Origin: an uncultured Chloroflexia bacterium
GTDB lineage: Bacteria; Chloroflexota; Ktedonobacteria; Ktedonobacterales; JADMIN01
Reading direction: 5' to 3'
Assembly (NCBI GenBank): GCA_963718915.1
Contig: CAVRAI010000003.1
Span: 642,103-706,102, forward strand
Length of the DNA stretch: 64,000 bases
In this document: piece by piece, positions 292-61,538 of the stretch
Position numbering within the stretch: the stretch's first letter is position 1
How the letters are laid out: every line of letters begins with the position of its first letter
Notes under the pieces: generated by a model
What the model was told of the DNA's origin: nothing
The model's input: the letters and a program-made list of their open reading frames with translations, nothing else
Database searches by the model: none
Made by a program: the position numbers and the translations under genes

Positions 292-683
292 AACTACCTC
301 CGGTAGGTTGTGAGTCTGGACGCCGATGGGCCGAGGTTAGCGTACAGGTCAAAAGCATGAGATGACACCGTAAGTTGGTGAAGTTCGCGGGATTAATACC
401 GCCCTACGCCCCTGGGTGAGTATGCTCCTTGCCTGGAGTTGAGTGATGCGCTCTGCCGATGATGCTGTAGTGGGAGAGGGGCATACTCTGCTTTTGGATA
501 GCGTGGAACTGCGCTTATGGACTCACCCGGCGTATGGCGCGGATGAAGCGGACGTTGACTATGCTCAAGATGCGTCCGGAGCGGGCGGCAGGTTGTCGTC
601 TCCATAGACGCAATGCGCGTAGAGGCGACAACGACAGGTTGAAGCGCGTTCAAGCGCGTTCACGAACACGAAGGAGAAGGCAA

Positions 684-5907: not shown

Positions 5908-7308
5908 ATGAGCGGGCGCGGTAACTCGCCGCTATCAGTGTTTGCGGAGGGGAACTGGAGGCGGAACCTCTGGATCTGGGCAACGCCGCTGCTCTTTTTT
6001 GTGGGCGCGATTGCCTTTGCGCTTCTCACGCTGCAATGGGATCAGGCGGTTGCCGCGGGACATCTCGCCTTGCCGAGATGGGCGGTGAGCGATGACCCCG
6101 GTGACGCTCAGTCCATCCTCTCGGTCGTCGCGGGCGCGTCCATCAGCGCGCTCACGCTGGTCTTCTCTTCGGCGCTGGTCGTGCTGACGCTGGCGGCGGC
6201 GCAGTTCGGCTCTTTTCTGTTACATGACTTCATCCGCATGCGCATCGTGCGCTTAACCCTCAGTATGTTTGTCGCCACGTTCGTGTATAGCCTGATGATA
6301 CTGGCGCGCGTGGGGGACGGATTGACCCAGGAGTTCGTCCCTCAAATCTCCGCCAAAATCGCGATGGTGCTTGCCTTTGTCAGCTTAATACTGCTGATCG
6401 GATTCATCTATAGCATCTCGATCTCGATCCAGGCCCAGCAGGTGGCCGCGCAGGTGGCTGCCGAACTGCGACGGGCGATTGACGAGCGCCAGCGTGCGAT
6501 TGCCTCCGAGGGAGGGATCGATGTCTCCGACGCGCCCGTGCCAGACAATCTGGCCGAGGCTACTCGTCATCTGGCAGCGGACGCGGCGTCGGTGACTGCG
6601 ACGAAGAGCGGCTACCTCCAGGAGCTTGCGTTTCGGAAGCTGGTGCGCGCAGCCAGCCAGGCGGGGGCCGTCGTACATCTTATGTACCGCCCAGGGCAAT
6701 ACATTCTGGCTGGTTCGGTGCTCGCCGAGGTCTGGCCACCACATGCCATTGATGCGCACTCGCCATTGGCGTCGGCGGTCCAGCGCGCCCATATCGTGGG
6801 ATCGCAGCGCACGATGCGCCAGGATCTCGAGTTTGCCATCGACAAGCTCGAACAGATTGCGTTGATCGCGCTCTCCGCTTCGATCAACAATACCTTCAAC
6901 GCGCTGATCTGCATCGACTGGCTCGCCGATGGGCTGCGCATGCTTGCCGAGAAGCCCAGCGACTGGCTTGTCTACCATGATGTGCAGGGCGCCGTCAGGG
7001 TCATCACCCAACCACTCACGCTGACGAGCCTCATCGACGCCGCATTCTCTAAAGTCCGCTACGCGAGTCGCGGCAATCCGGCGGTGGTCATCCACCTGCT
7101 GCGGGCAATTGGCCGCCTCGCGCCGTTTCTTGCCGCGCCGGAGCAGCGTGACGCGCTGGCAGCCCAGGCGAACGCGGCGGTCGAGGAGGCGCTGCACGTG
7201 CTTTCGCTGGAATCGGACCGTGCGGCGGTTCTCGATTGCTACACGAGTACCTGCGAGGTTCTTGGGCGGCCAGCGCTCCTGTCTCCGGCGCGGGCGCCTG
7301 TGCGCTGA
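5908..7308 (+). CDS. DUF2254 domain-containing membrane protein
   Basis: ORF 5854..7308, start preferred at ATG 5908 (GGGGGAG upstream). N-terminal multi-TM region (LWIWATPLLFFVGAIAFALLTL...) followed by a large soluble domain, the architecture I associate with DUF2254. Confidence 0.7.
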   Translation: MSGRGNSPLSVFAEGNWRRNLWIWATPLLFFVGAIAFALLTLQWDQAVAAGHLALPRWAVSDDPGDAQSILSVVAGASISALTLVFSSALVVLTLAAAQFGSFLLHDFIRMRIVRLTLSMFVATFVYSLMILARVGDGLTQEFVPQISAKIAMVLAFVSLILLIGFIYSISISIQAQQVAAQVAAELRRAIDERQRAIASEGGIDVSDAPVPDNLAEATRHLAADAASVTATKSGYLQELAFRKLVRAASQAGAVVHLMYRPGQYILAGSVLAEVWPPHAIDAHSPLASAVQRAHIVGSQRTMRQDLEFAIDKLEQIALIALSASINNTFNALICIDWLADGLRMLAEKPSDWLVYHDVQGAVRVITQPLTLTSLIDAAFSKVRYASRGNPAVVIHLLRAIGRLAPFLAAPEQRDALAAQANAAVEEALHVLSLESDRAAVLDCYTSTCEVLGRPALLSPARAPVR

Positions 7309-7354
7309 GGGCCAGCTTCCCAGGGTGGCTCATACCGAGCGCGTTAACACTTGG

Positions 7355-7771
7355 TTAACACTTGAAGGTGGACTTCAACGAGTTTACCTTGGTCTGCGCC
7401 TGGGCCACCTTGCTCTTGAAGTCCTGGAGCTTGGGGCCGACCTGACCCATCGTGGCGTTATCGGGCTGGTCTTTGATCGCCGCCGTTAGCTCATCGTTGG
7501 CCTGCTGGAGGTCGCTCATCGTTGAGCCGTCCAGTCCAGGGATCTTGCTGAGCACGCCGATCGCGGTGGTAAGTTTCTGCTGGATCGCCTTGACCTCGCC
7601 CACCGTGGTCTGATCGCCCACATTGGCGAGCTGGTTGAGCGGCTGTTCAACCGCCGCCAGGCCCTGGCATATCTTGTTCGTTACGCCCCCGGTGGAGATG
7701 GATGTGGCGCCGCAGCCCGCCAGCAGCAGGAGCGCGGCCAGCAGGATGATGGCTACACGTGAGTGACGCAT
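7355..7771 (-). CDS. Lipoprotein, function unknown
   Basis: ORF 7355..7771. Signal peptide with lipobox MRHSRVAIILLAALLLLAGC. GGAGG upstream. Confidence 0.7.
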   Translation of the reverse strand: MRHSRVAIILLAALLLLAGCGATSISTGGVTNKICQGLAAVEQPLNQLANVGDQTTVGEVKAIQQKLTTAIGVLSKIPGLDGSTMSDLQQANDELTAAIKDQPDNATMGQVGPKLQDFKSKVAQAQTKVNSLKSTFKC

Positions 7772-7868
7772 GGTGGAACCTCCTGTATTGGGCTGTTGGG
7801 CTGTTGGGCTGTCCTGGCATATCAGGCGACCCGGCTCTGCGCCGCGCGCCTGGCTTCCTCTCCCACCT

Positions 7869-7933
7869 CAGCATAGCCGCCGCCCATGCTCGCTACCCCA
7901 TCCGCAGGGTGAGTACGCCGGGCGGGTTTTCCC
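7869..7933. other. Conserved about 65-nt intergenic element, copy 1 (partner at 10757..10820)
   Basis: CAGCATAGCCGCCGCCCATGCTCGCTACCCCATCCGCAGGGTGAGTACGCCGGGCGGGTTTTCCC aligns by eye with the copy at 10757 at roughly 85 percent of positions. Confidence 0.7.
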
Positions 7934-8175
7934 TTATCTTTGTGGGAAGCCACGCAGTAAGCAGGCGGTAGTGGTGGTATGCTCGTATGGCGAGGGTACG
8001 GTGAGGGCAATAGACGTAACAAGACCAGGAGCGCCTGGCACAACCAGTGATAGACTGGAGGCATGAGCATGAGCGCGTACACTCTGGGCCGGGGACGCGA
8101 CCGTGGTATCGGACGGTCGGTTTCGGCGCAATCGGGGTCCATCCGACGACGAGGCGGGCGAGAGGAGCCTGTGCG

Positions 8176-9315
8176 ATGAGTTACGACTATGTGGTGGTAG
8201 GCGGTGGCATCTATGGCTGTGCCACAGCGTGGGAGCTGGCGCGCCGTGGGGCGCGCGTGGTCGTGCTCGAAGCGCGAGCCGTTGCGTCGGGCGCATCGGG
8301 TGGGCCTGGCAAGCGTGGTGTGCGTGCGTGCGGTCGCGATCCGCGGGAGTTGCCTCTCATGCAACTGGCGTACGACCTGTGGCCTGCGTTAGCCGACGGG
8401 ATCGGCGCGGCAACCGGTTACGAGCGCACGGGCCTACTCCACCTTTTCGAGCGCGAACCGGACGGCCTCGACGGCGGCTGGGCGAGCGCCCCCGGTCGCG
8501 CCTGGGTGCAAAGTCGGCGTGGCATCGCTACAGAGATCCTCGACCGCGACGCCGTGCGCGCGCTGGAGCCTGACGTGTGTGAGGCAGTGAGCGGCGCACT
8601 CTACTGCCCCGACGACGGCATCGCGGATCACACGGCCACTACGCGCGGCCTCGCCGCAGCTGCGGCGCGCCTGGGCGCCGAGATCCGCGAGGGGACAGCA
8701 GTCGTCGGCCTGGAGCGTGCGGGCGACCGAGTGACGGCGGTGGTGACGGCAGAGGGCGAGCGCATCGCGGTGGGTGATGCTGCGCTGCTCCTCACCAATG
8801 GGCACGCGCCTGGCTTCGTGCGCAAGGAGCTTCGTGTGACCTTGCCCGTCTGGTCCATGCTGCCGCAAGTGCTGCTGACCGAGCCGCTAGACTCGCCGCC
8901 GATCCGTCACCTGATCGGTCACGAGCGACGCACACTGGCGATCAAGCCGATCCCCGGCGGGCAGGTGATGATCTCGGGTGGGTGGCACGGACGCTGGAAC
9001 GCCCAGGCGGATCGGGGCGAGGTCATCCCGGCGCAGGTGGAGGGCAACCTCGCCGAGGCCGCCGCTGTCTTCCCCGCGCTCGTCGGCGTTCGTCTGGCTG
9101 AGAGTGACGCCTCCCGCCTAGAGTCGGTCTGCGTGGACGACATTCCGATTATCGACCGCCTCCCCGGCGCCACAAATCTCATCGTCGGCACTGGCTGGTC
9201 AGGGCATGGCTTCGCCATCTCGCTGGCGGTGGCGAAGCTTCTAGCCGACTGGGTCACCGGGTCAGAGCAGCCCGAACTGCTACGTCCATTCGCCTACGAT
9301 CGCTTCCTGGCATGA
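8176..9315 (+). CDS. FAD-dependent oxidoreductase (DAO / glycine-sarcosine oxidase-like)
   Basis: ORF 8047..9315, start at ATG 8176 (GAGGAG upstream). Dinucleotide-binding motif YDYVVVGGGIYGCATAWELARRGARVVVLE. Confidence 0.85.
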   Translation: MSYDYVVVGGGIYGCATAWELARRGARVVVLEARAVASGASGGPGKRGVRACGRDPRELPLMQLAYDLWPALADGIGAATGYERTGLLHLFEREPDGLDGGWASAPGRAWVQSRRGIATEILDRDAVRALEPDVCEAVSGALYCPDDGIADHTATTRGLAAAAARLGAEIREGTAVVGLERAGDRVTAVVTAEGERIAVGDAALLLTNGHAPGFVRKELRVTLPVWSMLPQVLLTEPLDSPPIRHLIGHERRTLAIKPIPGGQVMISGGWHGRWNAQADRGEVIPAQVEGNLAEAAAVFPALVGVRLAESDASRLESVCVDDIPIIDRLPGATNLIVGTGWSGHGFAISLAVAKLLADWVTGSEQPELLRPFAYDRFLA

Positions 9316-9350
9316 CGTGGCGCGCGGCTGGCCATCGTGCCTTCCTCTTA

Positions 9351-10672
9351 TTAGCCGGTCGGCGCCGTGGCTTGCGTCTTTGTGCTTCTGGCTCTGCGCT
9401 GCGCTATCATCCGCTTGATGCTTTCGCCCACGATCAGCGCGACAAGGCTGGAGAGCACCAGGAGCGCGATCTCGTTCGCGTCGGCGGTGCCGATCACCAC
9501 CACCAGCAGGATCGACGTCAACGGCGCGCCCAGCGCCATCGTAAGGGTCGCCGCCTCGATGCACAGCACGAAGATCGAGACTGGCACACCGGGGAAGAGC
9601 AGGCTCAGCGCGAGGCCGAACATCGTGCAGGAGAACAGGATCGGGAACGTGGGGCCGCCCAGATAGCCGCTCTTGAAGGAGAGGGCCAGGAGCAGCAGCT
9701 TGAGGATTCCTAGCCCCAGCAGCGCCAGGACGCCATAGCTCGCGGGGTTGTCGATCATGGGGAAGATTTGTGTCTCGCCAGCGAACATCACCTGCGGGAC
9801 GAAGAAGACGACAATAGCGATGACGACCGCGGCGACAAGAATCCGCAAGATAACCCGGTCGTGGAAGATGCGCTCGGTGAGCGTCTGGAAGAAGCGGAAC
9901 GAAATTGCGACGAAGAGCGCCACCAGCACGCCGACGAAACCCAGCGCGATAGCGAAGAGAACGTAGGGCACGGTCAACTGATTGATTGGCGTGAAAGTGA
10001 TGTATTTGGCGAAGTCTGACAGGTTGAGCAGCGCATAGAAGAGGTATCCGATGACGCCGGCAAGCAGGTTCCAGGCAAGGAACGCCAGCGCATTCGTCCC
10101 GCCAACGCCCAGCTCAGTCGCGAGTACTCCGGTGAAGAGCGGGCTGCCGATAATGCCATTGTAGGCGGAGGCCAGGGCCGCCAGGTCGAATCCCTGTGCG
10201 GTCTCGCGTGAGATTCTGAGCTTGCTGCGAATCCATGCCGTAACGTCGCCGACAAGTATGCCAACGGGAGCTTCAGGGCCGACACTTGCTCCGGAGAGCA
10301 ACGAGGCGAATGCCGTGAGAAGCGCGCCGGGGAAGGTCGTGTAGTCCGACTCTTCGCCTCCCTTGAACGCATTCACCACCCCGCCGTGGATGACGGTTGG
10401 CGCGCGCAGATACTTCTGGGCAAGCCCGACGATGAGGGAGAAGACGAGAACCCCGACCGGGATCGTCCAGCGCCGGGTGGTGAAGAAATCGTTGGGCCAG
10501 ATGGCACGGAGAGAAACCCGTTGATGCCCAGGAAAATCGCCGTGAAGATGATAGCGACCAGCGCAATGCCGATGATCTGCCATAATTTCGGCGCCGCTAC
10601 GGATCCTTCCTGGTCGGTTGGCGTCGTTGCTGGCGTCGCTGCCTCTGTCGGCGTCTCGTGCGTCTCAGTCAT
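9351..10672 (-). pseudogene. ClC family chloride channel, apparently frameshifted near 10505-10520
   Basis: ORF 9351..10583 carries the ClC body (GASVGPEAP, GSPLFTGVLATELG, GYLGGPTFP). The true N-terminus (MTETHE...KLWQIIGIALVAIIFTAIFLGINGFLS) is in another frame (ORF 10373..10762). It starts at ATG 10672 with GGAGGAA upstream. Confidence 0.6.
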
Positions 10673-10756
10673 ATCAGCGTTTCCTCCAGGAGGATCCAGG
10701 AAAGCAAGTGGCAACGCTTCCCATAGACTCGCTTCCCATAGACTCCAGTTAGACTC

Positions 10757-10820
10757 CAGCATGAACGACGCCCACGCTCGCTACCCCGTCCGCTGGGTGA
10801 GTCTGCCGGGTGGGTTTCTC
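10757..10820. other. Conserved about 65-nt intergenic element, copy 2
   Basis: CAGCATGAACGACGCCCACGCTCGCTACCCCGTCCGCTGGGTGAGTCTGCCGGGTGGGTTTCTC. See copy 1 at 7869..7933. Confidence 0.7.
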
Positions 10821-11033
10821 ATTACTCCATGCTTAGAGAATGGGTATGGTACCAGCGGCGGCGCATGCTCTCACTCCCCTTATGGCCAGTCGAATACTAT
10901 GCCACTGATCCACCCCGGCGCATGGGGTAACGATGCGATTTTCTGTCTACCTTGATTGCTGACAGCATGGCATTGGCCGCAATGGATGTAGATGTCGCAT
11001 GCTAACATCCTGTTCCTGGGAGGGAGATAGCCT

Positions 11034-11477
11034 GTGGTCTTCTGGCTGGCGGCGCTCTTTGTCGCCATCTTCTGGCTCCTTCCCGCACTCTGGGCATTCA
11101 CCTCCCATTTCCAACGCCGCCGGAGACGGGTCGCGCCTTCAGCCGAATACGCCCTTGCGGAGGCGCGTTCGCGCGCCCTTTTGCGCGATCTGCTGGATGA
11201 GCGGGAGTTCCAGCAACTGACGCAGCAGGGATATCTGGACGTCGCCAGCCCCAACTATGAGGATCGCGTCTATCGCATACCTGGCTGCGCTGGATGGGTC
11301 TGTGTCTACGAGAAAGGGCAGGCGCGGGTGAACCTGTGCCTACAGCCAGTGGAGCCGCTTCCAGGCAACGATATGATCGCACTGCACAAGCTCATGATCG
11401 AGGGGAACGAACACGGCTACCTGGCTCGCGCCAATGAGATTCCGCTCTTCTTCCCGACCCGGAGCGACGACGAGTAG
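11034..11477 (+). CDS. Uncharacterised single-TM protein, paralogue of 42106..42582
   Basis: ORF 11034..11477 (GTG start, GGGAGGGAG upstream). N-terminal TM, then the conserved block YLDVASPNYEDRVYRIP...LCLQPVEPLP...HKLMIEGNEHGYLARAN shared with the 158-aa paralogue. Confidence 0.6.
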   Translation: MVFWLAALFVAIFWLLPALWAFTSHFQRRRRRVAPSAEYALAEARSRALLRDLLDEREFQQLTQQGYLDVASPNYEDRVYRIPGCAGWVCVYEKGQARVNLCLQPVEPLPGNDMIALHKLMIEGNEHGYLARANEIPLFFPTRSDDE

Positions 11478-11507
11478 AGGGTAATTTTCCTGAAGGGGGA
11501 ACGAACC

Positions 11508-12275
11508 ATGATGCTGGCAAACAAGGTGGCCATCGTGACCGGGGGCGACAGCGGCATTGGGCACGCAATCAGCGTGGGACTCGCCCGCGAGGGCGCCGCA
11601 GTGACGATTAACTACCACCGCGACCAGGCGGCTGCCGAAGCCACGTTGCGACAGATTCAGCAGGAGGGTGGCAAGGGCCAGGTCATCCAGGCCGATGTCG
11701 CCAATCCGGCGGATATTCAGAAGCTCGTCGACCAGACGGTGCAGGCGTTCGGGCGTCTGGATGTGATGGTCAATAACGCCGGGATGGAGACGCGCACCTC
11801 CCTGCTCGATACCACGGAGCGGCAGTTCGATCTGGTGATCGGCGTTGACCTGAAGAGCGCCTTTTTCGGGACGCAGATGGCCGCCCGGCAGATGATCAAA
11901 CAGGGCGGCGGCGGCCACATCATCAATATCTCGTCGGTCCATGAAGACTGGCCGATGCCAGGCAATATCGCCTACTGCTGCGCCAAAGGCGGGGTGCGCA
12001 TGCTGACCCGGACCGCTGGCGTTGAGCTGGGGCCGAATGGCATCACGGTGGTGAACGTTGGCCCTGGCGCGGTGGATACCCCCATCGACGCCAAGACACT
12101 TGCCGATCCAGCAGAGAAGGCCAAGCTCGACGCCGCCATTCCACTTGGCCACGTCGCTGAGCCGAACGAGATCGCCAACCTGGTGGTCTGGCTGGCCTCT
12201 GACCAGGCGCGCTATGGGACCGCGACCACGTACTTCATTGACGGCGGCATCATGCAGAGCAGCGTTGGCCTCTAG
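11508..12275 (+). CDS. SDR family oxidoreductase (glucose 1-dehydrogenase-like)
   Basis: KVAIVTGGDSGIGHAI (TGxxxGxG), NNAG, catalytic YCCAKGG (YxxxK). Confidence 0.9.
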   Translation: MMLANKVAIVTGGDSGIGHAISVGLAREGAAVTINYHRDQAAAEATLRQIQQEGGKGQVIQADVANPADIQKLVDQTVQAFGRLDVMVNNAGMETRTSLLDTTERQFDLVIGVDLKSAFFGTQMAARQMIKQGGGGHIINISSVHEDWPMPGNIAYCCAKGGVRMLTRTAGVELGPNGITVVNVGPGAVDTPIDAKTLADPAEKAKLDAAIPLGHVAEPNEIANLVVWLASDQARYGTATTYFIDGGIMQSSVGL

Positions 12276-12283
12276 CCCACTGC

Positions 12284-13243
12284 TCAGAGAATCGCCAGCG
12301 GGTTGACTGGTGAGCCTGTTCCGCCGGTGATGCGTAGTGGAGCCGCGACGAAGAGAAACTCCCAGCGTCCAGCCTGCTCGCAGGCGGCGCGGAGGTCTTC
12401 TAACTGCAGATAGTCCAGCAGGTGGACACCCAGCGCGTTGATCGCCAGGACGTGGATCGGGAAGCCAACGCCGTCGGTGGGGCTCGGCGCGGTATCGCTG
12501 TTCCCATCGGAACCCAGCGCGGCAACCCGACGCTCGGCGACGAACGACATCGCGGTCGGATGCAGGCCAGCCTTGAGCCGCGCCGTATCCCACGGCCCAA
12601 GCTCGCTGAGTCGCCGGACGTGGCCGGTACGCACCAGGAGGATGTCGCCCTCGCCAACGGCAATGCCCTGTGCGCGCTCCGCCGCCTCGAGATCATCACG
12701 GAAGATGTGCTCGCCTGGCTCGATCCAGGGTACGCCGCGCAGGCGCGGGATGTCGAGCAGGACACCGCGACCGACGAGTCCGTCTTTCAGGACGTCAATC
12801 GCGTCGACCGTCGCTCCATCCGTCGTCACGGTATCGTCCCGCTGCGCATTGTACAGGAGCCTCTGATAGTCAACGTGGCACAGCGCATCAATGTGTGTAT
12901 GGCCATCGTTATGATAGTCCACGCCAATGTAATCCTTGACGAAGTGGAGTGCTTCCGAGCCGCTGTCGTCCTCACCAGCCGCGATAATGCCTGGCATAAT
13001 CATATGGTGCACGGCGGGTCTGGGATTGTCGATCGCTGCCTGCGTGTTCAACGGCAGACTCAGCGAGAGGCTGACACCGTCGCGTACGAGCCGGGCAGAT
13101 GCCGCGACACGCTGAGGGGTGAGATAGTGCAGCGCCCCACGCTGGTCTTGTGCGCCCCAGTGGCCCCACCGCTTCATCTCCTGAAAGAGTGTGTCGAACT
13201 CGTCCGCAGTGAGATGCGCGTCGTCTGTGCGCTGCTGATCCAT
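12284..13243 (-). CDS. Cyclase family protein (kynurenine formamidase-like fold)
   Basis: ORF 12284..13300, start preferred at ATG 13243 (AAGGGAGA upstream). Metal motif DGHTHIDALCH. Confidence 0.75.
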   Translation of the reverse strand: MDQQRTDDAHLTADEFDTLFQEMKRWGHWGAQDQRGALHYLTPQRVAASARLVRDGVSLSLSLPLNTQAAIDNPRPAVHHMIMPGIIAAGEDDSGSEALHFVKDYIGVDYHNDGHTHIDALCHVDYQRLLYNAQRDDTVTTDGATVDAIDVLKDGLVGRGVLLDIPRLRGVPWIEPGEHIFRDDLEAAERAQGIAVGEGDILLVRTGHVRRLSELGPWDTARLKAGLHPTAMSFVAERRVAALGSDGNSDTAPSPTDGVGFPIHVLAINALGVHLLDYLQLEDLRAACEQAGRWEFLFVAAPLRITGGTGSPVNPLAIL

Positions 13244-46290: not shown

Positions 46291-47289
46291 ATGAACAAAA
46301 CACTCACCCGCACAATCTGTTGCAAACTGGATGTTGACGGCCATGAAGTTGTCTTGGCCGCGACGCAACGCGCCTTCAACGCGGCAGCGACCTGGATTGC
46401 GCAGATATGCTGGGATGAGGGCATCACGAACACCAACACTGCCCACCATCGGGTCTATGGCGAGACGCGCCTGAACTTCGGCCTGGGCGCGCAATTGGCT
46501 GTCTGCGCCAGAGCCAAGGCGATTGAAGCCATCAAGGCGGTCAAGGCCAAGCGTCGCGAACAGACCGACACCTGCCCGCGCTTCGGGCCACGTGGCAGCA
46601 TTCGCTACGACGCCCGCACCTATCGCCTGATGAGTCTTGACCGTGTCTCGCTTAACACCCTGGATGGTCGTATCGTCTGCCGTCTGCTGTTGGGCGCGCG
46701 TCAGCATGAGATGCTGGTAGACCCGGCATGGACGATTGGCGGTGCTGATCTGGTCTGGCGGCGTGGGGTCTACTACCTGCATGTCACGCAAAGCCGCGAA
46801 GCGCCGGATGTCTTGGAGCCAAATAGTGGCACACATAGTGGCACACTGGGTGTTGACCTGGGCATTGTGAATCTGGCCACCGATAGTGAGGGTGAGTCGT
46901 TTAGCGGCACGACGGTGAAGAAAGCCGTCGTCTCGTGCAAGGCAATCGCTCTCGAAGACCTCAGCGGAATCCGAGAGCGGGTCACGGTTCGTCACGAACA
47001 TCGCTACGAACGGCATTCCTGGGCCTTCTACCAATTGCGCTCCTTTCTCACCTACAAAGCCGCATGGGCCGACGTGTCGCTGCATCTGGTAGACCCTCGG
47101 AATACCAGCCGCACGTGCTCGGCTTGTGGCCATTGTGAGAAGGCGAATCGGAAGAGCCAAGAGTCGTTCCTCTGCCAGCGATGTGGCTTCGCACTCAATG
47201 CGGACTACAATGCCGCCATCAACATCTCGCGAAAAGAATCCTATCGGGCCGCAGTCAATCGGCCTATGGCGTCACCCCTCGCGGGGTAG
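46291..47289 (+). CDS. tnpB: TnpB (IS200/IS605-family OrfB, RNA-guided nuclease type) with an internal deletion of about 50-55 aa
   Basis: RuvC-I GVDLGIVNLA (D189), RuvC-II AIALEDL (E222), zinc ribbon TCSACGH...CQRCG, RuvC-III NADYNAAINI (D305). D-to-E spacing is 33 aa versus about 85 in full-length TnpB. No tnpA is adjacent. Confidence 0.8.
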   Translation: MNKTLTRTICCKLDVDGHEVVLAATQRAFNAAATWIAQICWDEGITNTNTAHHRVYGETRLNFGLGAQLAVCARAKAIEAIKAVKAKRREQTDTCPRFGPRGSIRYDARTYRLMSLDRVSLNTLDGRIVCRLLLGARQHEMLVDPAWTIGGADLVWRRGVYYLHVTQSREAPDVLEPNSGTHSGTLGVDLGIVNLATDSEGESFSGTTVKKAVVSCKAIALEDLSGIRERVTVRHEHRYERHSWAFYQLRSFLTYKAAWADVSLHLVDPRNTSRTCSACGHCEKANRKSQESFLCQRCGFALNADYNAAINISRKESYRAAVNRPMASPLAG

Positions 47290-52974: not shown

Positions 52975-53531
52975 ATAGTGGCTCCTGGTTGGGACGTTCT
53001 GCAGCCCCTTCAGCATTGCCTTACAGCGCGGACTCCAGAAAGCCCTGTTTTAATGGAAGTCTGCCGCTCCACATGAAGTACCCGGACGCCTCACACATGA
53101 TGGAGTATCAGGTATGAGGCGTCGGGCAGATACGCAGACATCGCTGGTCACAAGTGTACGAGTTGGCAGCGCCTGTTTCACCACCTGTCGGGTGAGTCCA
53201 AACGACGTGTTTTGTAGCTGTCCAAAGCTACGACACGCGCCTATCCCGAAGGGGAGCATCGGCTTGCCATGTTGCGTCGCCGATGTGCCATGTCGGGCGC
53301 TCTGGGCCATCCATCGGTGCGCCAACTCACCCTGGAGGGAGATAGCCGCTCACCTTGATGTCTCACCCAGGGTGTGAAGCTCATAGGCAAGGCGCATGCC
53401 TATACTTGGTTTATGCTGGCTGGATTCTGGGGGATTTTCGGCGTCGAGTCAGCGGCTTTCAATGCTGGATTATTGATCCATGGTGTTGACAGAACCATTC
53501 TGTATGCTTTGCCCGAAGGAGAAGAAACGAC

Positions 53532-54706: not shown

Positions 54707-55120
54707 ATGATGCGACGAGGTGGAGCACTGGGACGGCGCGGCCCTGGCCTGCTTGGAACGATGGCGCGAACCGCGGTGATCGCGGGGACGGCCACGGCGG
54801 TCTCCAAAGGGGTGAGTGGTTCAATGAATCAACGCGCCGCACAACAACAGACGGCGCAGCAACAGCAACAGCAGGCGGCATTTGACGCGGGCTACCAGCA
54901 GGCGCAGACGCAAGAACAGGCGCAACAACAGCAACAGCAACAGCAGCAGATGCAGGCGGCTCAGGCTCAGGCTGGGGCGCCACAGGCCGCTAGCCCGGCC
55001 TCGACTACCGATGCCATGATCGCGCAATTGCAACAACTGGCCGAGCTACAGAAGCTGGGGATTCTGACGCCAGACGAATTCGCCCAGCAGAAGGCGAGGG
55101 TTTTAGGCGGCGCGAACTAA
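54707..55120 (+). CDS. SHOCT domain-containing protein with poly-Q linker (cassette B)
   Basis: MMRRGGALGRRG..., Q-rich linker, C-terminal IAQLQQLAELQKLGILTPDEFAQQKARVLG. Confidence 0.75.
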   Translation: MMRRGGALGRRGPGLLGTMARTAVIAGTATAVSKGVSGSMNQRAAQQQTAQQQQQQAAFDAGYQQAQTQEQAQQQQQQQQQMQAAQAQAGAPQAASPASTTDAMIAQLQQLAELQKLGILTPDEFAQQKARVLGGAN

Positions 55121-55686: not shown

Positions 55687-57027
55687 CTAGTTCGCGGCAA
55701 GCGGGACGGTGAACCAGAAGGTCGAGCCTTCGCCGGGCACGCTCTCGACGCCAACTTTTCCTCCCATCTGTTCGACCAGCTGGCGACAGATGAACAGGCC
55801 GAGGCCAAGTCCCTCGGCGCTAAATTTGCTGGACCCGCTGGCGCGGTAAAAGCGCTCCCACACACGGGGCTGATGCTCCAGGGCGATACCGACACCATGA
55901 TCGCAGACAGCCACCCGCGCCTCGCCGTCGCCGCGCTCCAGCCGCACCTCGACCGGCTGGACATTTGGTGAATACCTCAGCGCATTGGAGAGATAGTTGC
56001 CGACCACCTGCGCGATGCGATCCGCATCGGCCACGACGGGAATGGCCTCCGTGGGTGATTCCAGATGGATGATTCGTCTGCGCCACACCAGCCGCTGGCC
56101 AGCGACCGTATCATGCAGGATCTCGCTGAGGTCGCAGCGCGACGTATGTGTCTCGGCGATGCCGACGCGAATGCGCGTGATATCGGCAAGATCGGAGAGC
56201 AGGCGCTCTGCCATGTTGGTATTGCGGTCGACGAGCGCGAGAGCCGCCGTGGCGCGCGCCACATGCATCGAGGTAGAGTCGGAGGCCATGCGGCTATCCT
56301 CCACCCGCTTCAGCTGGCGCTGCGCGATCTGTGTGCCCAGTTTCATGGTTGTGAGTGGCCCGCGAAGCTCATGGACGATCTGCATGAGCGCCGCTTCGGT
56401 GTTTTCGCTATCCTGGCGCAGTTGTCCCACCGTGTTCGCCCATGCCTCGCGCTCATACATCAGTCGCCCATGATCGAGCGCCAGCGCGACCAGTTGCGCC
56501 AGCGCGCGTGTCCGCAAGAGAACATCCGGCATGACACGCTTACCAAATCGAAACTCGACGATCAACGCGCCCAGCCGTCGCTCGCTGACCAAGAGCGGCA
56601 GCACGAGCCGGACGATTCTGCGTGTGGTGGAGTCGGGAGAGGCAGGATCATGGGTATCACCTTCCTCCCGAACCGCGTGCAGTCCCGTCGAACGAGAGAT
56701 GGATTCGTTGCCTGCCTCGATTTCGGGGATGTCGGCGCATATCTGATCCCACCAGGCGGATGCGCGGCCCGGCGCAACGCCAGCCGTAGCGATCAAGCGT
56801 GGCCGCCTGGCGCGCGCTGACCTCAAAACGATCCCCACCGTCTCGCTATAGAGGGTATAGCGAACCAGATTGGCAAGCCATGTTGCGAGGCCAGTCTCGT
56901 CACGCCAATCGTCGGCGCCAACCAGTGTTGTCTGGCGAGCATCGGTGGGCACGGCAAAACTTACCGTTCCATGTGCCCATCGTCCCTGGTCTCTTCTCGC
57001 ATGCATACCACACCTCCCGGGGTTCAT
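55687..57027 (-). CDS. Cytoplasmic sensor histidine kinase (GAF-like N-domain, HisKA, HATPase_c)
   Basis: H-box [12 protein letters not shown]-box [11 protein letters not shown]-boxes DHGVGI and [18 protein letters not shown]. No TM segment seen. Confidence 0.85.
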
Positions 57028-57338
57028 TAGTTGAGGGTTCGTTCAGCGCGCACTGTCTGCGGTAAACGCGCGCGGGAGACGCATCACGGCGCTCAATGAG
57101 GATGCGCCCGACGGTTTCTCCTGCTGTGCAGCCAGGGCCTGTCGCTCCAGCGTGTGTAACGTCAACTGAAGGGAGGCTCCTGCCGCACTGCTCACTCTAA
57201 AACGAGAATCCCTGCGCCGCATGCAACAAAGGTTGCAAAAATGAAGTGGCAAGTTTTGTGAGAATACCCCTTATGGTGATGCGGTTTTGTATGATAAAGT
57301 ACAGATTGCAGCCTATTCGTCGTAGGAAAACAGCCTGT

Positions 57339-57367
57339 TTGTATGTGTTAACAGGATCAACATACAA
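57339..57367. promoter_or_regulatory. Candidate operator: inverted repeat TTGTATGT-N13-ACATACAA in an AT-rich divergent intergenic region
   Basis: Read directly. Lies between the kinase (minus strand) and the response regulator (plus strand), in the most AT-rich stretch of this part of the window. Confidence 0.3.
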
Positions 57368-57580
57368 CCATCTTAACAACTTGCTTCCTGTATCTGTGCA
57401 TCGCGCTCTCAGGCCAGAAGATAGCAAATGGTATACATGGGGAAATGCTCGACAGGCGGGTGTGATCGCACAAGGCGTTGTAGGGGTGTAGGTGTGTAGG
57501 TGTATGCAGGAGGAAGACTGTGTATCAAGCGCCGCGAAGGTGTAGCTGATAGTTGCGGCCTGCGTGCGTTTGACGTTCCC

Positions 57581-57647
57581 CGATAACAGCGCGATAACAG
57601 CGTGGCATATCTGGCGTATCTGGCATCTTTGGCATCTTTGGCATCTT
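57581..57647. repeat. Two adjacent tandem repeats: 11-nt (cgataacagcg) x2 and 9-nt (tggcatctt-like) x5
   Basis: Read directly. About 200 nt upstream of the response-regulator start. Confidence 0.85.
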
Positions 57648-57849
57648 TAGCAAGAGTCAGGGGCGGTGCGGGCGGACGTGCGTCTGGGTATTGGCGATCC
57701 CGCGAGGCCGAGCGGAGGGATCATTTGGTGTGCGAGAGCGGCTTCATCGAACGCTTGCGGTTGGAAGAGGCTCACACACGCGCTCAAATGAGTTCGGTAC
57801 GCGGAACAGGGATCATCGCGACAGTGCCCCACCACGAAAGAGGCGAACG

Positions 57850-58503
57850 ATGGTGAGAATCCTGGTGGCGGAAGACCATGAAGTCATGCGGCGCGGTCTG
57901 CGTGATCTGCTCCTGGAGCACCAGGGATGGGAGGTGTGCGGGGAGGCGCGCAATGGGCGTGATGCGCTCGATCTCGCCGTCCAGTTACGCCCCGACGTCG
58001 CCGTCGTGGATATCTCCATGCCAATACTCAGCGGCCTGGAGGCTACACGCCACATTCGCCAGCAATCTCCTGATACGGAGGTGCTCATTTTTACCCAGTA
58101 CGAGAGCGGCCAGTACGTTCAAGAGGCGTTGCGTGTCGGCGCACAGGGATATATCCTCAAGTCCGACGCGGCGCTACACCTGACCGAAGCGGTAGAGGCG
58201 CTGGCCAGACACGAGCCGTTCTTCTCGCCGGGCATCTCGAAAACGATCCTGAATACGTTCCTGAACTCGGAAGAGCAGAAGCGTGATGAGGTTGCGTTAT
58301 CCACGCTCACGACGCGCGAGCGTGAGGTGATGCTGATGCTCGCCTCGGGTAAAAGGAATCGTGATGTGGCCGATGAGCTGTACATTGCCCCAGGTACTGT
58401 CATCACGTATCGTGCTAAAATCATGAAAAAGCTGGGGGTGTCTTCCATTGCCGGGGTGATCCTCTTTGCCGCGCGGAACAACCTCATCGTATTCCAACGA
58501 TAG
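57850..58503 (+). CDS. NarL/FixJ-family response regulator (REC + LuxR-type HTH)
   Basis: Inner start ATG 57850 of ORF 57691..58503. MVRILVAEDHEVMRRGL...DVAVVDISMP. HTH LTTREREVMLMLASGKRNRDVADELYIAPGTVITYRAKIMKKLG. Confidence 0.9.
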   Translation: MVRILVAEDHEVMRRGLRDLLLEHQGWEVCGEARNGRDALDLAVQLRPDVAVVDISMPILSGLEATRHIRQQSPDTEVLIFTQYESGQYVQEALRVGAQGYILKSDAALHLTEAVEALARHEPFFSPGISKTILNTFLNSEEQKRDEVALSTLTTREREVMLMLASGKRNRDVADELYIAPGTVITYRAKIMKKLGVSSIAGVILFAARNNLIVFQR

Positions 58504-59192
58504 GCAATGTACGCGATATGGCGTAGAAACCATGTGAAACGGGCATCTTTGCATACAGTGATTATCGACATAAAATACTACAAAAGCTGTATACAAAGTC
58601 CCATCGACTGGTGCTATAGTACTGGTGTGCTCAAAACGCACCGATACCTTTGTGCAAGGGCATCGTCGCTCCTCCGTCGAATGGCTAATGTACCTGATAC
58701 TACAGTGTGTCATACGACAATGCGTCCAATGCCTTAGTCCTACCAGTTAACCCCCTCTCAGGGCGCAGTTCTGTGCGTTCACGTACCATCTTCAGGTACC
58801 CCTGGGAGAGATGCACAGGTCCTTGCAAAGTGTCCTGGATCTGCCACACCGCGTGGCAAACGTAGCACAAGAGCCTGGAGAGTTCTTCCCGATCTTCCTT
58901 GTGACAGGACGGATCCCAACAATTACCAGGAACTGGGATGGAAGACGGGATAGGATATAAGCGGTGATTGCCTCGCTGCCCGTACGGCAAAGAGATGCTG
59001 AGGGATGTGGTAATGCATCCCTGAACATTGGCGAGGCGCTCATTGTGGCGGCATGGCGCACGTCGTTGCACCCCGGCAAGCCGACGTGGCGGAGCCGACA
59101 CTGCCGCGATGCTAGTGCGGCGCTTCACGAGCGCCCTAGCTGCTGACTCTCCTCTCAGGAATCTCCGCATTACCCAAGGGAGGAGACGATCC

Positions 59193-61538
59193 ATGGGTAT
59201 CCCTCTCGTCACAGTTCGGCATGGGCTTGTGAGCGTGTCGATGGACATTGGCTCCGCTGAATGGTTCACCTTGCTCGATAGGATCGACATTTTTGCCGTT
59301 GAGGCACACGATATCTCGTTCCTCGTGCGACGCATGCATGATGGAGCGTTCGCGCTCTGGCTGGCCTTTTGCTCGATTGACAATGACCCACGCTGTGTTG
59401 TGGTGGGTTCGGCGTCGGAACTCACGCGAGAGCGGCTGCTGACGGCAGCGCACCAGCTCGCGAATTGGGATACGGTCACTCCCGAATTTCAGGTAGAGCT
59501 GGAGCGAGAAAGCGCGCCTATGCCGCAGCTGTCTGTCACCAGCCCGGATCTCCTCGTGACCAAGTTAGAGATGCCTACCGTCACCAGCAGGACGCTGGTT
59601 CGCACACAAGCCATTGACCGCATGGCGCGCGCGCTGGATTATCCTCTCACCGTCGTCAACTCGCCTTCTGGCTATGGCAAGACGACCCTCGTGGCAGCAT
59701 GGGCGAGCGAGACCCCTGCGCGGGTGGCTTGGTTGCTGCTGGATGAGAACGACAACGACCCGGTGCGCTTCTCCACCCATCTGCTCGCCGCTCTCGACCG
59801 GGTTGTCCCTGGTCTGCTTACCGCGGTACTACCCTATGTGCAGAACGCGCAGACGCATCTCTCTGATGGATCGCTCATCTCCCGGCTCATTAATTCACTG
59901 ACCTCGACTGATGGTCACATTGCCCTCGTGCTCGATGGGTACCATACGATCAGTCAAGACAATGCGGTGATCCAGAACGCGATGAACTACTTCATCGAAA
60001 ACCTGCCACCCCACGTCCATGTCATCGTCCTGACTCGTACCAGCGTCCCCTTGCGCCTCCCATGGTTGCGCGTTGCCGGGCGGCTGTTTGAATTGCGCAT
60101 TGATGACCTGCGCTTCACGGAAGACGAAGCGCGCGTATTTCTGGAGCGACGGACAGGCTCGGACGTAGCGCCTGAGGTCAGCGCGCGCATTCACCGACGC
60201 ACTGAGGGCTGGGTGGCTGGGCTGCAGCTTGCCGCGTTCGCGCTCGAAGATTCGCGCACTCCCGCGGAAAATGTGGCAGACCTCCTGAGTGAGAATCGCA
60301 ATGTCGTCGATTTCATCGCGGAGGAGGTGCTCACGCGACTGCCGCATGCGGTCAGCGAGAATGTCTTGTGGATGGCCGCACTGGACCGGTTCAACGTGGC
60401 GCTCTGCGACGCGCTGCCAGGGATCGTGGACAGCCAGACGACGCTGGAGACCCTCGAGCGCGAAAACGCATTCCTCGTCCCGGTCGATGACCCCTCCGGC
60501 TGGTACAGGTTCCATAGACTCTTCCGGGAGGTGCTCTGGAAGCGGCTTCAACGGACGCACAAAGAAGAGTTGGCCGAGATGCATCGCCAGGTGAGCGCCT
60601 GGTATGAAGCCCATGGCATGACGCGCGATGCGGTTCACTATGCGTTGCATGCGAGCGATGAGCACGCGGTTCTGCGCATCGTTCGTGAACTTGCCAATCG
60701 TGTCTTCGAGAGCGGATCCTCCCCGTCCGACCTCCGGGCACTGGCGCAATGCCTTGATCTTCTGCCCGCGGACATGATACAGAAGCATCCGCAGCTCTGT
60801 CTGATTGAAGCGCAGATGTTCGTACAATCAGGCGATCTCGACGAGGCCGAACTGTGGCTGGAAGCCGCCGATACGCATATCTCTCAGGATATGACAGTGG
60901 ATGGCGAGACAGCTGCATCAGGCGACCATATGCGTATGCGGGACGAGATCATGCAGGTTCGGGGCATCATCGCGCGACTGCGCAAGGGAAGCCCTCCCGC
61001 CGATGGCTGGCAGTCAGCCCTGATGCACGCGCCGCACGCATCGCATTCATCGCATGCGTGGGAGCCTCAAGCCGCCATGTTGTCCACACTGTCCATATCG
61101 TCCGTATCGTCCGTGCCACCGCGCGCGCAACGCATGCCCCAGCGTACCGATGCGCACCATTCCTCCACCGTTCCTGGACCTCTGGTCATTTACGAGCGAG
61201 TCACCGCGCGCGAAAAGGAGGTTCTGGTGCTGCTCGCCAAAGGCGAACCCAATCAGGTGATCGCTGACGATCTCACCATCGCCGTCGCGACGGTCAAGCG
61301 CCATCTGAGCAACCTCTACCGCAAGTTACAGGTGGATAACCGGACTCAGGCGGTGTGGCGAGCCTGGACCCTTGGCCTGCTCGACGACCTTCCTGCCGAT
61401 GGCGCGGATACATTGGCGCCTCATAGCGACCGGACTAAGCCGGACGAGCGCGGTGCGGGTATGAGTATGCCTCGGTGGAATAACTTCCCCAACAGCAATG
61501 GCAACGGCAATCTTCCCCCTGGCATCACGCCGGGATAG
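59193..61538 (+). CDS. Large LuxR-family regulator (MalT/LAL-like: unknown N-domain, P-loop NTPase, helical repeats, LuxR HTH)
   Basis: ORF 59028..61538, start preferred at ATG 59193 (GGGAGGAG upstream). Walker A NSPSGYGKTTL. C-terminal LTAREKEVLVLLAKGEPNQVIADDLTIAVATVKRHLSNLYRKL. Confidence 0.85.
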   Translation: MGIPLVTVRHGLVSVSMDIGSAEWFTLLDRIDIFAVEAHDISFLVRRMHDGAFALWLAFCSIDNDPRCVVVGSASELTRERLLTAAHQLANWDTVTPEFQVELERESAPMPQLSVTSPDLLVTKLEMPTVTSRTLVRTQAIDRMARALDYPLTVVNSPSGYGKTTLVAAWASETPARVAWLLLDENDNDPVRFSTHLLAALDRVVPGLLTAVLPYVQNAQTHLSDGSLISRLINSLTSTDGHIALVLDGYHTISQDNAVIQNAMNYFIENLPPHVHVIVLTRTSVPLRLPWLRVAGRLFELRIDDLRFTEDEARVFLERRTGSDVAPEVSARIHRRTEGWVAGLQLAAFALEDSRTPAENVADLLSENRNVVDFIAEEVLTRLPHAVSENVLWMAALDRFNVALCDALPGIVDSQTTLETLERENAFLVPVDDPSGWYRFHRLFREVLWKRLQRTHKEELAEMHRQVSAWYEAHGMTRDAVHYALHASDEHAVLRIVRELANRVFESGSSPSDLRALAQCLDLLPADMIQKHPQLCLIEAQMFVQSGDLDEAELWLEAADTHISQDMTVDGETAASGDHMRMRDEIMQVRGIIARLRKGSPPADGWQSALMHAPHASHSSHAWEPQAAMLSTLSISSVSSVPPRAQRMPQRTDAHHSSTVPGPLVIYERVTAREKEVLVLLAKGEPNQVIADDLTIAVATVKRHLSNLYRKLQVDNRTQAVWRAWTLGLLDDLPADGADTLAPHSDRTKPDERGAGMSMPRWNNFPNSNGNGNLPPGITPG

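Follow-up and report, generated by a model that had tools for sequence, protein, structure and literature searches.

A short element conserved at two divergent promoter regions of an uncultured Ktedonobacterales bacterium, read as a possible duplicated promoter-operator module

What does a sequence of about 65 nucleotides (nt) do in two divergent intergenic regions of the same bacterial contig? The question is raised by a 64,000-nt stretch of contig CAVRAI010000003.1 from an uncultured Ktedonobacterales bacterium (the whole analysed stretch is called the window), in which the element lies at 7869-7933 (copy A) and 10757-10820 (copy B). The gapless alignment of the copies gave 52 identical positions out of 65 (80%) and 51 out of the first 61 (84%); an earlier note on this DNA had estimated about 85%, and the similarity itself is borne out. 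A 27-nt core, GCTCGCTACCCCRTCCGCWGGGTGAGT, occurs twice in the window, in A and B only, and was matched in none of 100 shuffles. The likeness has abrupt ends, CAGCAT at the left and GGGTTT(T/C) at the right. The alignment and the gene map agreed with the earlier description of two copies in the same orientation (both on the plus strand as aligned), each inside a divergent intergenic region and with unrelated flanks. The neighbouring genes are as follows.

7771 (ATG), minus strand, lipoprotein gene with lipobox LLAGC, beside copy A
8176 (ATG), plus strand, FAD oxidoreductase gene of the DAO family (Pfam DAO), beside copy A
10672 (ATG), minus strand, ClC channel gene, beside copy B
11034 (start), plus strand, gene for a membrane protein of 147 amino acids (aa), TM147, beside copy B

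The minus-strand start codons were found 98 nt (lipoprotein gene) and 85 nt (ClC) from the element, and 69 nt from the copy in a more distant contig, L007; the plus-strand start codons are 243 nt (DAO) and 214 nt (TM147) away. These distances are slightly shorter than the 100-150 nt and 240-275 nt given earlier. The finding is real and under selection, and the element is read here as a promoter-operator module that was duplicated and serves two genes on the minus strand, ClC and the lipoprotein gene, a reading that is given rather more credence than doubt. Among the three options of the earlier note, namely a regulator-binding platform, a structured leader RNA and a small dispersed repeat, the first would fit best, as a promoter combined with an operator.

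Conservation was analysed using exact-core scans of public collections with a 22-nt search pattern, which need a near-exact core; one genome per species and metagenome contigs were covered, and the source genome was represented by its 64 kb. The element was retained at orthologous loci in about ten Ktedonobacterales contigs from metagenome-assembled genomes (MAGs) or metagenomes. In the genome scan three matches extended past the 22-nt pattern, all of them copy-B orthologs in Ktedonobacterales or 'Chloroflexia' MAGs, and one contig (L005) additionally has copy A with 2 mismatches; the other three matches (L001, L002 and L004) came from other phyla and shared the 22-nt pattern only. The metagenome scan gave six further loci, each an ortholog of A or B. 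Copy B is also present in two more distant contigs, L020 and L007, where TM147 is 79% and 67% identical, respectively. The exact-core scans found the full element in no other gene context in either public collection, and the scan of a plasmid collection gave chance-level matches only. Conservation at the orthologous loci, the test proposed in the earlier note, was thus seen in the A and B loci of relatives, and the dispersed-repeat option is not supported, because every extended match outside the window was an A or B ortholog.

Read on the minus strand, each copy has the layout ACTCACCC-N7-GGGGTAGCG-N15-(T/C)ATGCT. Its parts are listed from the upstream end.

7915-7932, minus strand, copy A upstream block GGAAAACCCGCCCGGCGT, at about -69 to -52, partly conserved with AAACC invariant
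7891-7914, minus strand, copy A 24-nt block ACTCACCC-TGCGGAT-GGGGTAGCG, a C-tract/G-tract pseudo-palindrome over the -35 position and putative operator
7876-7890, minus strand, copy A spacer of 15 nt, 12 of 15 columns varying over 14 A and B copies
7870-7875, minus strand, copy A -10-like hexamer TATGCT, 31 nt downstream of ACTCACCC, invariant in 6 of 6 distinct A copies
10803-10820, minus strand, copy B upstream block GAGAAACCCACCCGGCAG
10779-10802, minus strand, copy B 24-nt block ACTCACCC-AGCGGAC-GGGGTAGCG, putative operator, 2 of 24 columns varying among 8 B copies, both in N7
10764-10778, minus strand, copy B spacer of 15 nt, 10 of 15 columns varying among 8 B copies
10758-10763, minus strand, copy B -10-like hexamer CATGCT, 31 nt downstream of ACTCACCC; CATGCT in 7 of 8 B copies, CATCCT in L007

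The variable columns of this minus-strand reading were counted over 14 distinct copies (6 A and 8 B). The count revealed 11 variable columns out of 18 in the upstream block, 0 out of 8 in ACTCACCC, 3 out of 7 in N7, 1 out of 9 in GGGGTAGCG, 12 out of 15 in the spacer and 2 out of 6 in the hexamer, while all 25 columns in the 25 nt past the hexamer varied. The 24-nt block contains the invariant core that was recovered in all scans. As judged from sequence, this pattern of two conserved islands with a free spacer of constant length between them is that of a promoter footprint with a putative operator over the -35 region. The hexamers stand 79-92 nt ahead of the minus-strand start codons and are conserved in the orthologs; CATGCT of copy B retains A at position 2 and T at position 6. 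The mRNA starts are predicted near 7863 for the lipoprotein gene and near 10751 for ClC, and the similarity between A and B stops where transcription is predicted to begin.

Each copy of about 65 bp would then be a complete promoter with its operator, copy B driving ClC and copy A the lipoprotein gene. On the minus strand the order would be the AAACC block (about -69 to -52), the 24-bp block (about -51 to -28, over the -35 position), the 15-bp spacer and the -10 hexamer, with transcription starting about 7 nt past TATGCT or CATGCT. A putative regulator would bind the 24-bp block, for which activation and repression are both possible. ClC and the lipoprotein gene may be co-regulated in this way, and the divergent TM147 gene with them by means of a third copy that has diverged.

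A palindromic stretch flanks the element (7929-7948 and 10816-10840 in the window; about 153-172 in L020). Its arms are TTCCC..GGGAA at the A locus, TTCTC(G)..(C)GAGAA at the B locus and CTGGC.CAC.GCCAG in L020, with changes on both sides, and under the promoter model it would lie between both start sites, in untranscribed DNA. The predicted leaders hold tandem duplications specific to the window, GCTTCCCATAGACTC twice before ClC (10716-10745) and TTGGGCTG three times before the lipoprotein gene (7789-7812), which are not in the orthologs.

The spacing seen in A and B was found again elsewhere. The arrangement ACTCACCC-N31/32-TAnnnT, allowing for a variant box, occurs at three unrelated promoters in the window (521, 53190 and 53361), which makes five promoters when A and B are counted. 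These three promoters are listed together with those facing the plus-strand neighbours of the element.

521-565, plus strand, promoter ACTCACCC-N31-TATGCT, upstream of the DUF7144/SHOCT/DUF6325/DUF1269 operon (start 684)
53153-53197, minus strand, promoter ACTCACCC-N31-TACACT (box at 53190), upstream of an S1C protease gene
53361-53406, plus strand, promoter TCTCACCC-N32-TATACT, upstream of a DUF1269/glycine-zipper gene (start 53532)
10908-10953, plus strand, third and diverged copy ATCCACCC-N8-GGGGTAAC-N16-TACCTT, facing TM147, found by pattern scans and as a weak nhmmer match
8048-8056, plus strand, DAO promoter with extended -10 TGATAGACT, separate from the element

TAnnnT has a frequency of 0.0045 per position in the window, and four independent matches were obtained among seven intergenic boxes at one or two set offsets; the recurrence is therefore far beyond chance. 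In the 53-kb intergenic region, L026 and L027 show no change in TACACT or in the roughly 30 nt downstream of it; the ACTCACCC box is exact in L027 and carries 1 mismatch in L026. TATACT and the roughly 30 bases after it are likewise invariant in these two contigs, where the TCTCACCC box is not conserved. Conserved -10 boxes, each followed by a conserved stretch, are as expected of real promoters, so far as sequence can tell.

The third copy was also recovered with the pattern GGGKTWRC-N15-17-YAnnnT, which occurs at just 3 places in 64 kb: before the lipoprotein gene, before ClC and at 10924-10953 (plus strand) before TM147. Its block is conserved in L003, L005, L006 and L020, and in L007 with changes. 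As the third copy faces TM147, region B would consist of two back-to-back promoters of one design. The plus-strand starts predicted for the DAO and TM147 promoters are near 8063 and 10960.

The centre of the element is the octamer GGGTGAGT, which in the opposite orientation gives the ACTCACCC box. No 8-mer of the window is more strongly over-represented: 13 copies were counted where about 1.3-1.6 are expected (roughly 10-fold), at 414, 521, 2506, 7907, 10795, 29278, 33156, 36287, 46302, 46890, 53190, 53325 and 54810. Six copies are intergenic and all of them fall within 4 of the 11 divergent regions, with 0 of the 12 tandem or convergent regions holding one. The coding copies lie in several reading frames (read by hand), and at the two coding sites that were checked the relatives have different bases, synonymous at 54810. 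No excess of the octamer was seen in about 100 kb of related genomes, and a literature search on it returned 16S rRNA primers only. It may be a genome-wide signal in this organism, and its excess inside genes may point to selection at the DNA level beyond promoters.

The octamer could also be thought to serve the plus strand, as a -10-like box of the sigma-B/sigma-F type or an upstream activator site for DAO and TM147. It resembles the -10 boxes of group-3 sigma factors (sigma-B/sigma-F; compare GGGTAT), it stands 45-46 nt from the DAO -10 in five A loci, and the neighbours DUF1269, glycine zipper, SHOCT, cytochrome bd and PPK2 are like those of a stress island. However, a by-eye comparison of the sites gave no common -35-like box at a constant distance upstream, and the implied 5' leaders would be 210-340 nt long. 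The DAO box TAGACT keeps its 45-46 nt to the right of the octamer in L005, L011, L013, L014 and L015 (with TGn before it in four of them and CGT in L013), but in the window it lies 136 nt away owing to a 90-nt indel, and a promoter copy for TM147 itself is found 146 nt further along. The distances had looked constant, yet 36287 and 46302, two sites that seemed to support this orientation, fall in coding sequence, and it was the opposite orientation that gave exact N31 spacing to -10 boxes. A plus-strand promoter function is accordingly rated improbable. The element probably does not serve DAO and TM147, because DAO has its own -10 at a varying distance and TM147 homologs situated apart from ClC (L008 and L016-L019) are without the element.

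The 90-nt stretch itself (about 7958-8047) has CAGT at both ends and carries TGGTATGCT, an extended -10-like box; the window has it and so, apparently, does L012, and it is missing from the five other A loci.

The over-representation of the octamer also bears on whether a small selfish or mobile repeat, such as a repetitive extragenic palindrome (REP), a miniature inverted-repeat transposable element (MITE) or the remnant of an insertion sequence (IS) end, was inserted twice. The element shares with REP/REPIN and MITE sequences its short, GC-rich and hairpin-capable nature and an octamer that occurs in inverted pairs (414/521 and 53190/53325, fold z-scores -3 to -4), and a TnpB element lies within the window. 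Unlike such repeats, it is present as two fixed copies per genome, in divergent promoter regions only and without mobile-element ends. The full element is confined to two orthologous places in every sampled genome, with none elsewhere in the two public collections; no terminal inverted repeats or target-site duplications border A or B, no copies stand in tandem or convergent intergenic regions, selection is clearly position-specific, and the hairpin within the 53-kb pair is not kept in orthologs. A mobile origin is hence scarcely credible. The end of an IS605/TnpB element was also considered and rejected, as the motif is absent from the IS in L007 and site 46302 belongs to the N-terminal coding region of TnpB. 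These TnpB insertion elements (Cas12f1-like TNB domain) were located at 46291-47289 in the window and at 1952-3115 in L007, the latter interrupting the DUF2254 gene.

The inverted pairs were looked at as folds. In the divergent regions 398-545 and 53186-53335, GGGTGAGT and ACTCACCC form pairs 99 and 127 nt apart, each closing a multi-branched fold (z-scores -3 to -4). They were rejected as structured RNAs and are probably promoter boxes facing each other, because in the orthologs one arm of the closing helix is mutated and the inner hairpin is broken. The more distant Ktedonobacterales MAG L019 has the half-sites of the element in reversed order, as the perfect palindrome GTAGGGTGAG-TACCTAC-CTCACCCTAC (1746-1772, fold z-score -4.7), 130 nt upstream of an operon of DUF7144, an 81-aa gene and TM147.

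Could the element itself act as RNA? No match at gathering score was obtained from Rfam across the window, and none over the element even at E up to 10. Single-sequence folding of A and B on both strands gave z-scores from -0.6 to 0.2, that is, no more stable than shuffles (0.0 and 0.17 on the plus strand, -0.61 and 0.11 on the minus strand). The structured leader RNA offered in the earlier note is disfavoured by these results together with a weak, G-U-rich consensus fold. A terminator scan did not list the element, which is followed by only 3-4 Ts and has no upstream gene on that strand, and ARAGORN found no tRNA or tmRNA in 7000-12000.

One form of this explanation is a structured plus-strand RNA, either a small RNA or a leader or attenuator for DAO and TM147, with a hairpin ACCC-N8-GGGU and an end in GGGUUU. 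The RNAalifold plus-strand consensus contains three helices with 95% of cells paired at -14 kcal/mol over 118 columns, and the one-sided changes in helix 2 are all G-U compatible; both observations speak for this RNA and count against a promoter. A GA/UC to AG/CU swap between the B and A types, the T run after the hairpin and the neighbouring palindromic stretch with its changes on both sides are also in its favour. On the other hand, 22% of the paired cells are G-U and the energy is weak for such a span of columns, the z-scores are near zero, and the 4 pairs changed on both sides were equalled by 152 of 500 shuffles, the sequences being closely related. The swapped pair is broken in the window's own copy A, and the alignment read by hand showed A-G mismatches in the outer stem of three B orthologs. 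The lack of an Rfam match and of a listing among terminators weighs the same way, as does the distance from the element to the DAO promoter, which differs by 90 nt between genomes. The invariant 24-nt block and the free 15-nt stretch are moreover out of step with the proposed helices: the stems fail to predict the footprint, since in them the variable spacer would base-pair with the upstream block. A plus-strand RNA is regarded as improbable.

The other form places the element within the 5' leaders of the ClC and lipoprotein mRNAs, with transcription starting further upstream, as a riboswitch-like or protein-binding RNA. The similar orientation and distance to the start codons (98 and 85 nt, and 69 nt in L007) would agree with this, and ClC genes are riboswitch targets in other phyla, where the fluoride riboswitch controls them. 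The element is like the fluoride riboswitch (crcB motif) in being a conserved non-coding element upstream of a ClC-family gene, but it has neither an Rfam match of that or any other family nor a supported structure, and it also precedes the lipoprotein gene. The minus-strand consensus fold (-13 kcal/mol, covariation term -0.21) is weaker than that of the plus strand, with the z-scores already given. A leader gives no reason for the similarity to end just past a -10-like hexamer whose spacing recurs at unrelated promoters. This location within the leaders is judged unlikely. It would also take a long shot for the core GCUACCCC-N-UCCGC-N-GGGUGAGU and its flanks to be a new and very small structured RNA of one Ktedonobacterales clade that controls ClC, the lipoprotein gene and TM147; if it were so, the core would represent an undescribed riboswitch-like or protein-binding leader class. 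The RNA readings stay minor rivals, as the sequences are too closely related to settle the question.

Two further candidates were tried and rejected. A small open reading frame (ORF) was dropped because copy B offers no start codon in the minus frame, and the plus frame showed radical replacements (R/W/G, LP/PQ/PW) when the orthologs were translated by hand; two variable core positions fall at third-codon positions in two frames, and no frame works in both copies. GGTTTCTC was considered as the second half of a bipartite motif, and its other copies proved to be coding (Gly-Phe-Leu codons).

Several results weigh against the promoter-operator reading itself. No TTGACA-like -35 was found 16-18 bp upstream of the -10, where the sequence reads GGGTAG, and a generic promoter consensus scan of 7300-11500 gave no site. 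The hexamer is not T-first in copy B (CATGCT) or in L007 (CATCCT). The pseudo-palindrome is imperfect (CTCACCC vs CTACCCC): in A and B the dyad CTCACCC-N7-GGGGTAG agrees at 5 of 7 positions, and the partner half of the box differs at the remaining ACTCACCC promoters. At the 521 promoter the orthologs L022 and L023 retain the TATGCT/TATCCT box and not the ACTCACCC box, so ACTCACCC is dispensable for the existence of the DUF7144 promoter. Eight copies of GGGTGAGT lie in stop-to-stop ORFs, 7 of them truly coding, vs 1.0 in codon shuffles, and because of this excess inside genes the octamer may have a genome-wide meaning unrelated to promoters. The promoter-operator reading also gives no account of the upstream block or of the palindromic stretch just outside it.

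How would one promoter-operator module come to stand at two loci? The gene order in relatives bears on this point. In L008 ClC is followed on its own strand, after 68 nt, by a lipoprotein homolog. DUF2254, the lipoprotein gene, ClC and TM147 succeed one another without a DAO gene on the P0023 contig (JGI sample 3300047160), where 477 nt separate the lipoprotein gene from ClC. L007 has DUF2254, ClC, copy B, an 87-aa gene and TM147; the lipoprotein gene and DAO are both absent there. The window's clade has DAO and copy A between the lipoprotein gene and ClC. From these arrangements it follows that ClC and the lipoprotein gene are an old co-oriented pair and that DAO is the newcomer; as gene order suggests, the two were formerly adjacent and probably formed a single operon. 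The two promoter regions, described as unrelated in the earlier note, are historically linked because ClC and the lipoprotein gene are an ancestral pair. In the proposed sequence of events, DAO would have come between ClC and the lipoprotein gene, and the lipoprotein gene, separated from the ClC promoter, would carry a copy of the ClC upstream module.

Some observations concern the genes of this neighbourhood. Compared with L003 and L005, in which a single frame covers both the N-terminal segment and the channel domain, the ClC gene lacks 1 nt near 10508, and its frame is broken; either this is an assembly error or the gene is a pseudogene. A conserved gene of 81-87 aa without Pfam match stands ahead of TM147 in more distant relatives (5738-6001 in L007, 5753-5998 in L008, also in L016, L018 and L019), often together with DUF7144; this gene is missing from the window's clade. 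The 417-aa ORF at 11340-12593 (minus strand) is a spurious antisense frame, and the real gene is a short-chain dehydrogenase at 11508-12275 (plus strand), a call that rests on the pattern of GC content at third codon positions (GC3), a Pfam match and synteny with L008 and L020.

The putative operator was compared with the binding sites of known regulators. CRP/FNR class II sites are centred near -41.5. The element is like class II promoters, in which the site of a dimeric regulator lies over the -35, in that the centre of its 21-24 bp pseudo-palindrome falls about 40 bp ahead of the predicted start, no canonical -35 is present and the distance to the TAnnnT -10 hexamer is fixed at 31 bp; its half-sites, however, are G/C tracts and not TGTGA or TTGAT. 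The box GGGACT..AGTCCC of DosR/DevR is an example of the NarL/LuxR type, and the half-sites of the element are similarly GGG/CCC-ended and close to the -35, but their sequence and arrangement (C-tract first, 7-nt gap) are different. Operators of the CsoR/RcnR family are G/C-tract pseudo-palindromes, for example ATATACCCCTNAGGGGTATAT in Streptomyces (PMC3902906). The element is comparable in having TACCCC ... GGGGT(A/G), a C-tract and a G-tract with TAC/GTA-like ends, and in overlapping a promoter, and in L008 a GGGTGAGT site lies between ClC and a gene for a P-type ATPase with an HMA domain. It differs in the gap between the tracts (7-8 nt vs 3-5) and in one end (GTG vs GTA), and no CsoR-family gene was found among the window genes scanned; the likeness is a resemblance only.

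The stretch 55687-61538, beside the DUF1269/DUF6325/SHOCT operon, encodes a histidine kinase, a response regulator of the NarL type (57598-58503) and a large protein of the LuxR type. The NarL-type regulator and the kinase adjoin genes with ACTCACCC promoters, and the same neighbourhood is present in L026, L027 and L022. The surrounding genes include a K+ channel, PLD, DUF2254, NDH-2, cytochrome bd, PPK2, a P-type ATPase, HtpX-like and HtrA-like proteases, DUF1269 and Band 7, so that the neighbourhood looks like a stress or dormancy island, of which these three proteins are candidate regulators.

The element would thus be ordinary gene-control DNA, useful for annotation, with no surprising new mechanism. 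The motif ACTCACCC-N7-GGGGTARC, placed 31 bp from a -10 hexamer, would on this reading be a first candidate regulatory motif, and it would bring a small candidate regulon of membrane and envelope genes in uncultured Ktedonobacterales, a group in which promoters and regulators are essentially unstudied. If the promoter-operator reading is true, the locus would be a clean case of operon-split repair, in which a separated gene regains a copy of the upstream promoter-operator and the pair stays co-regulated.

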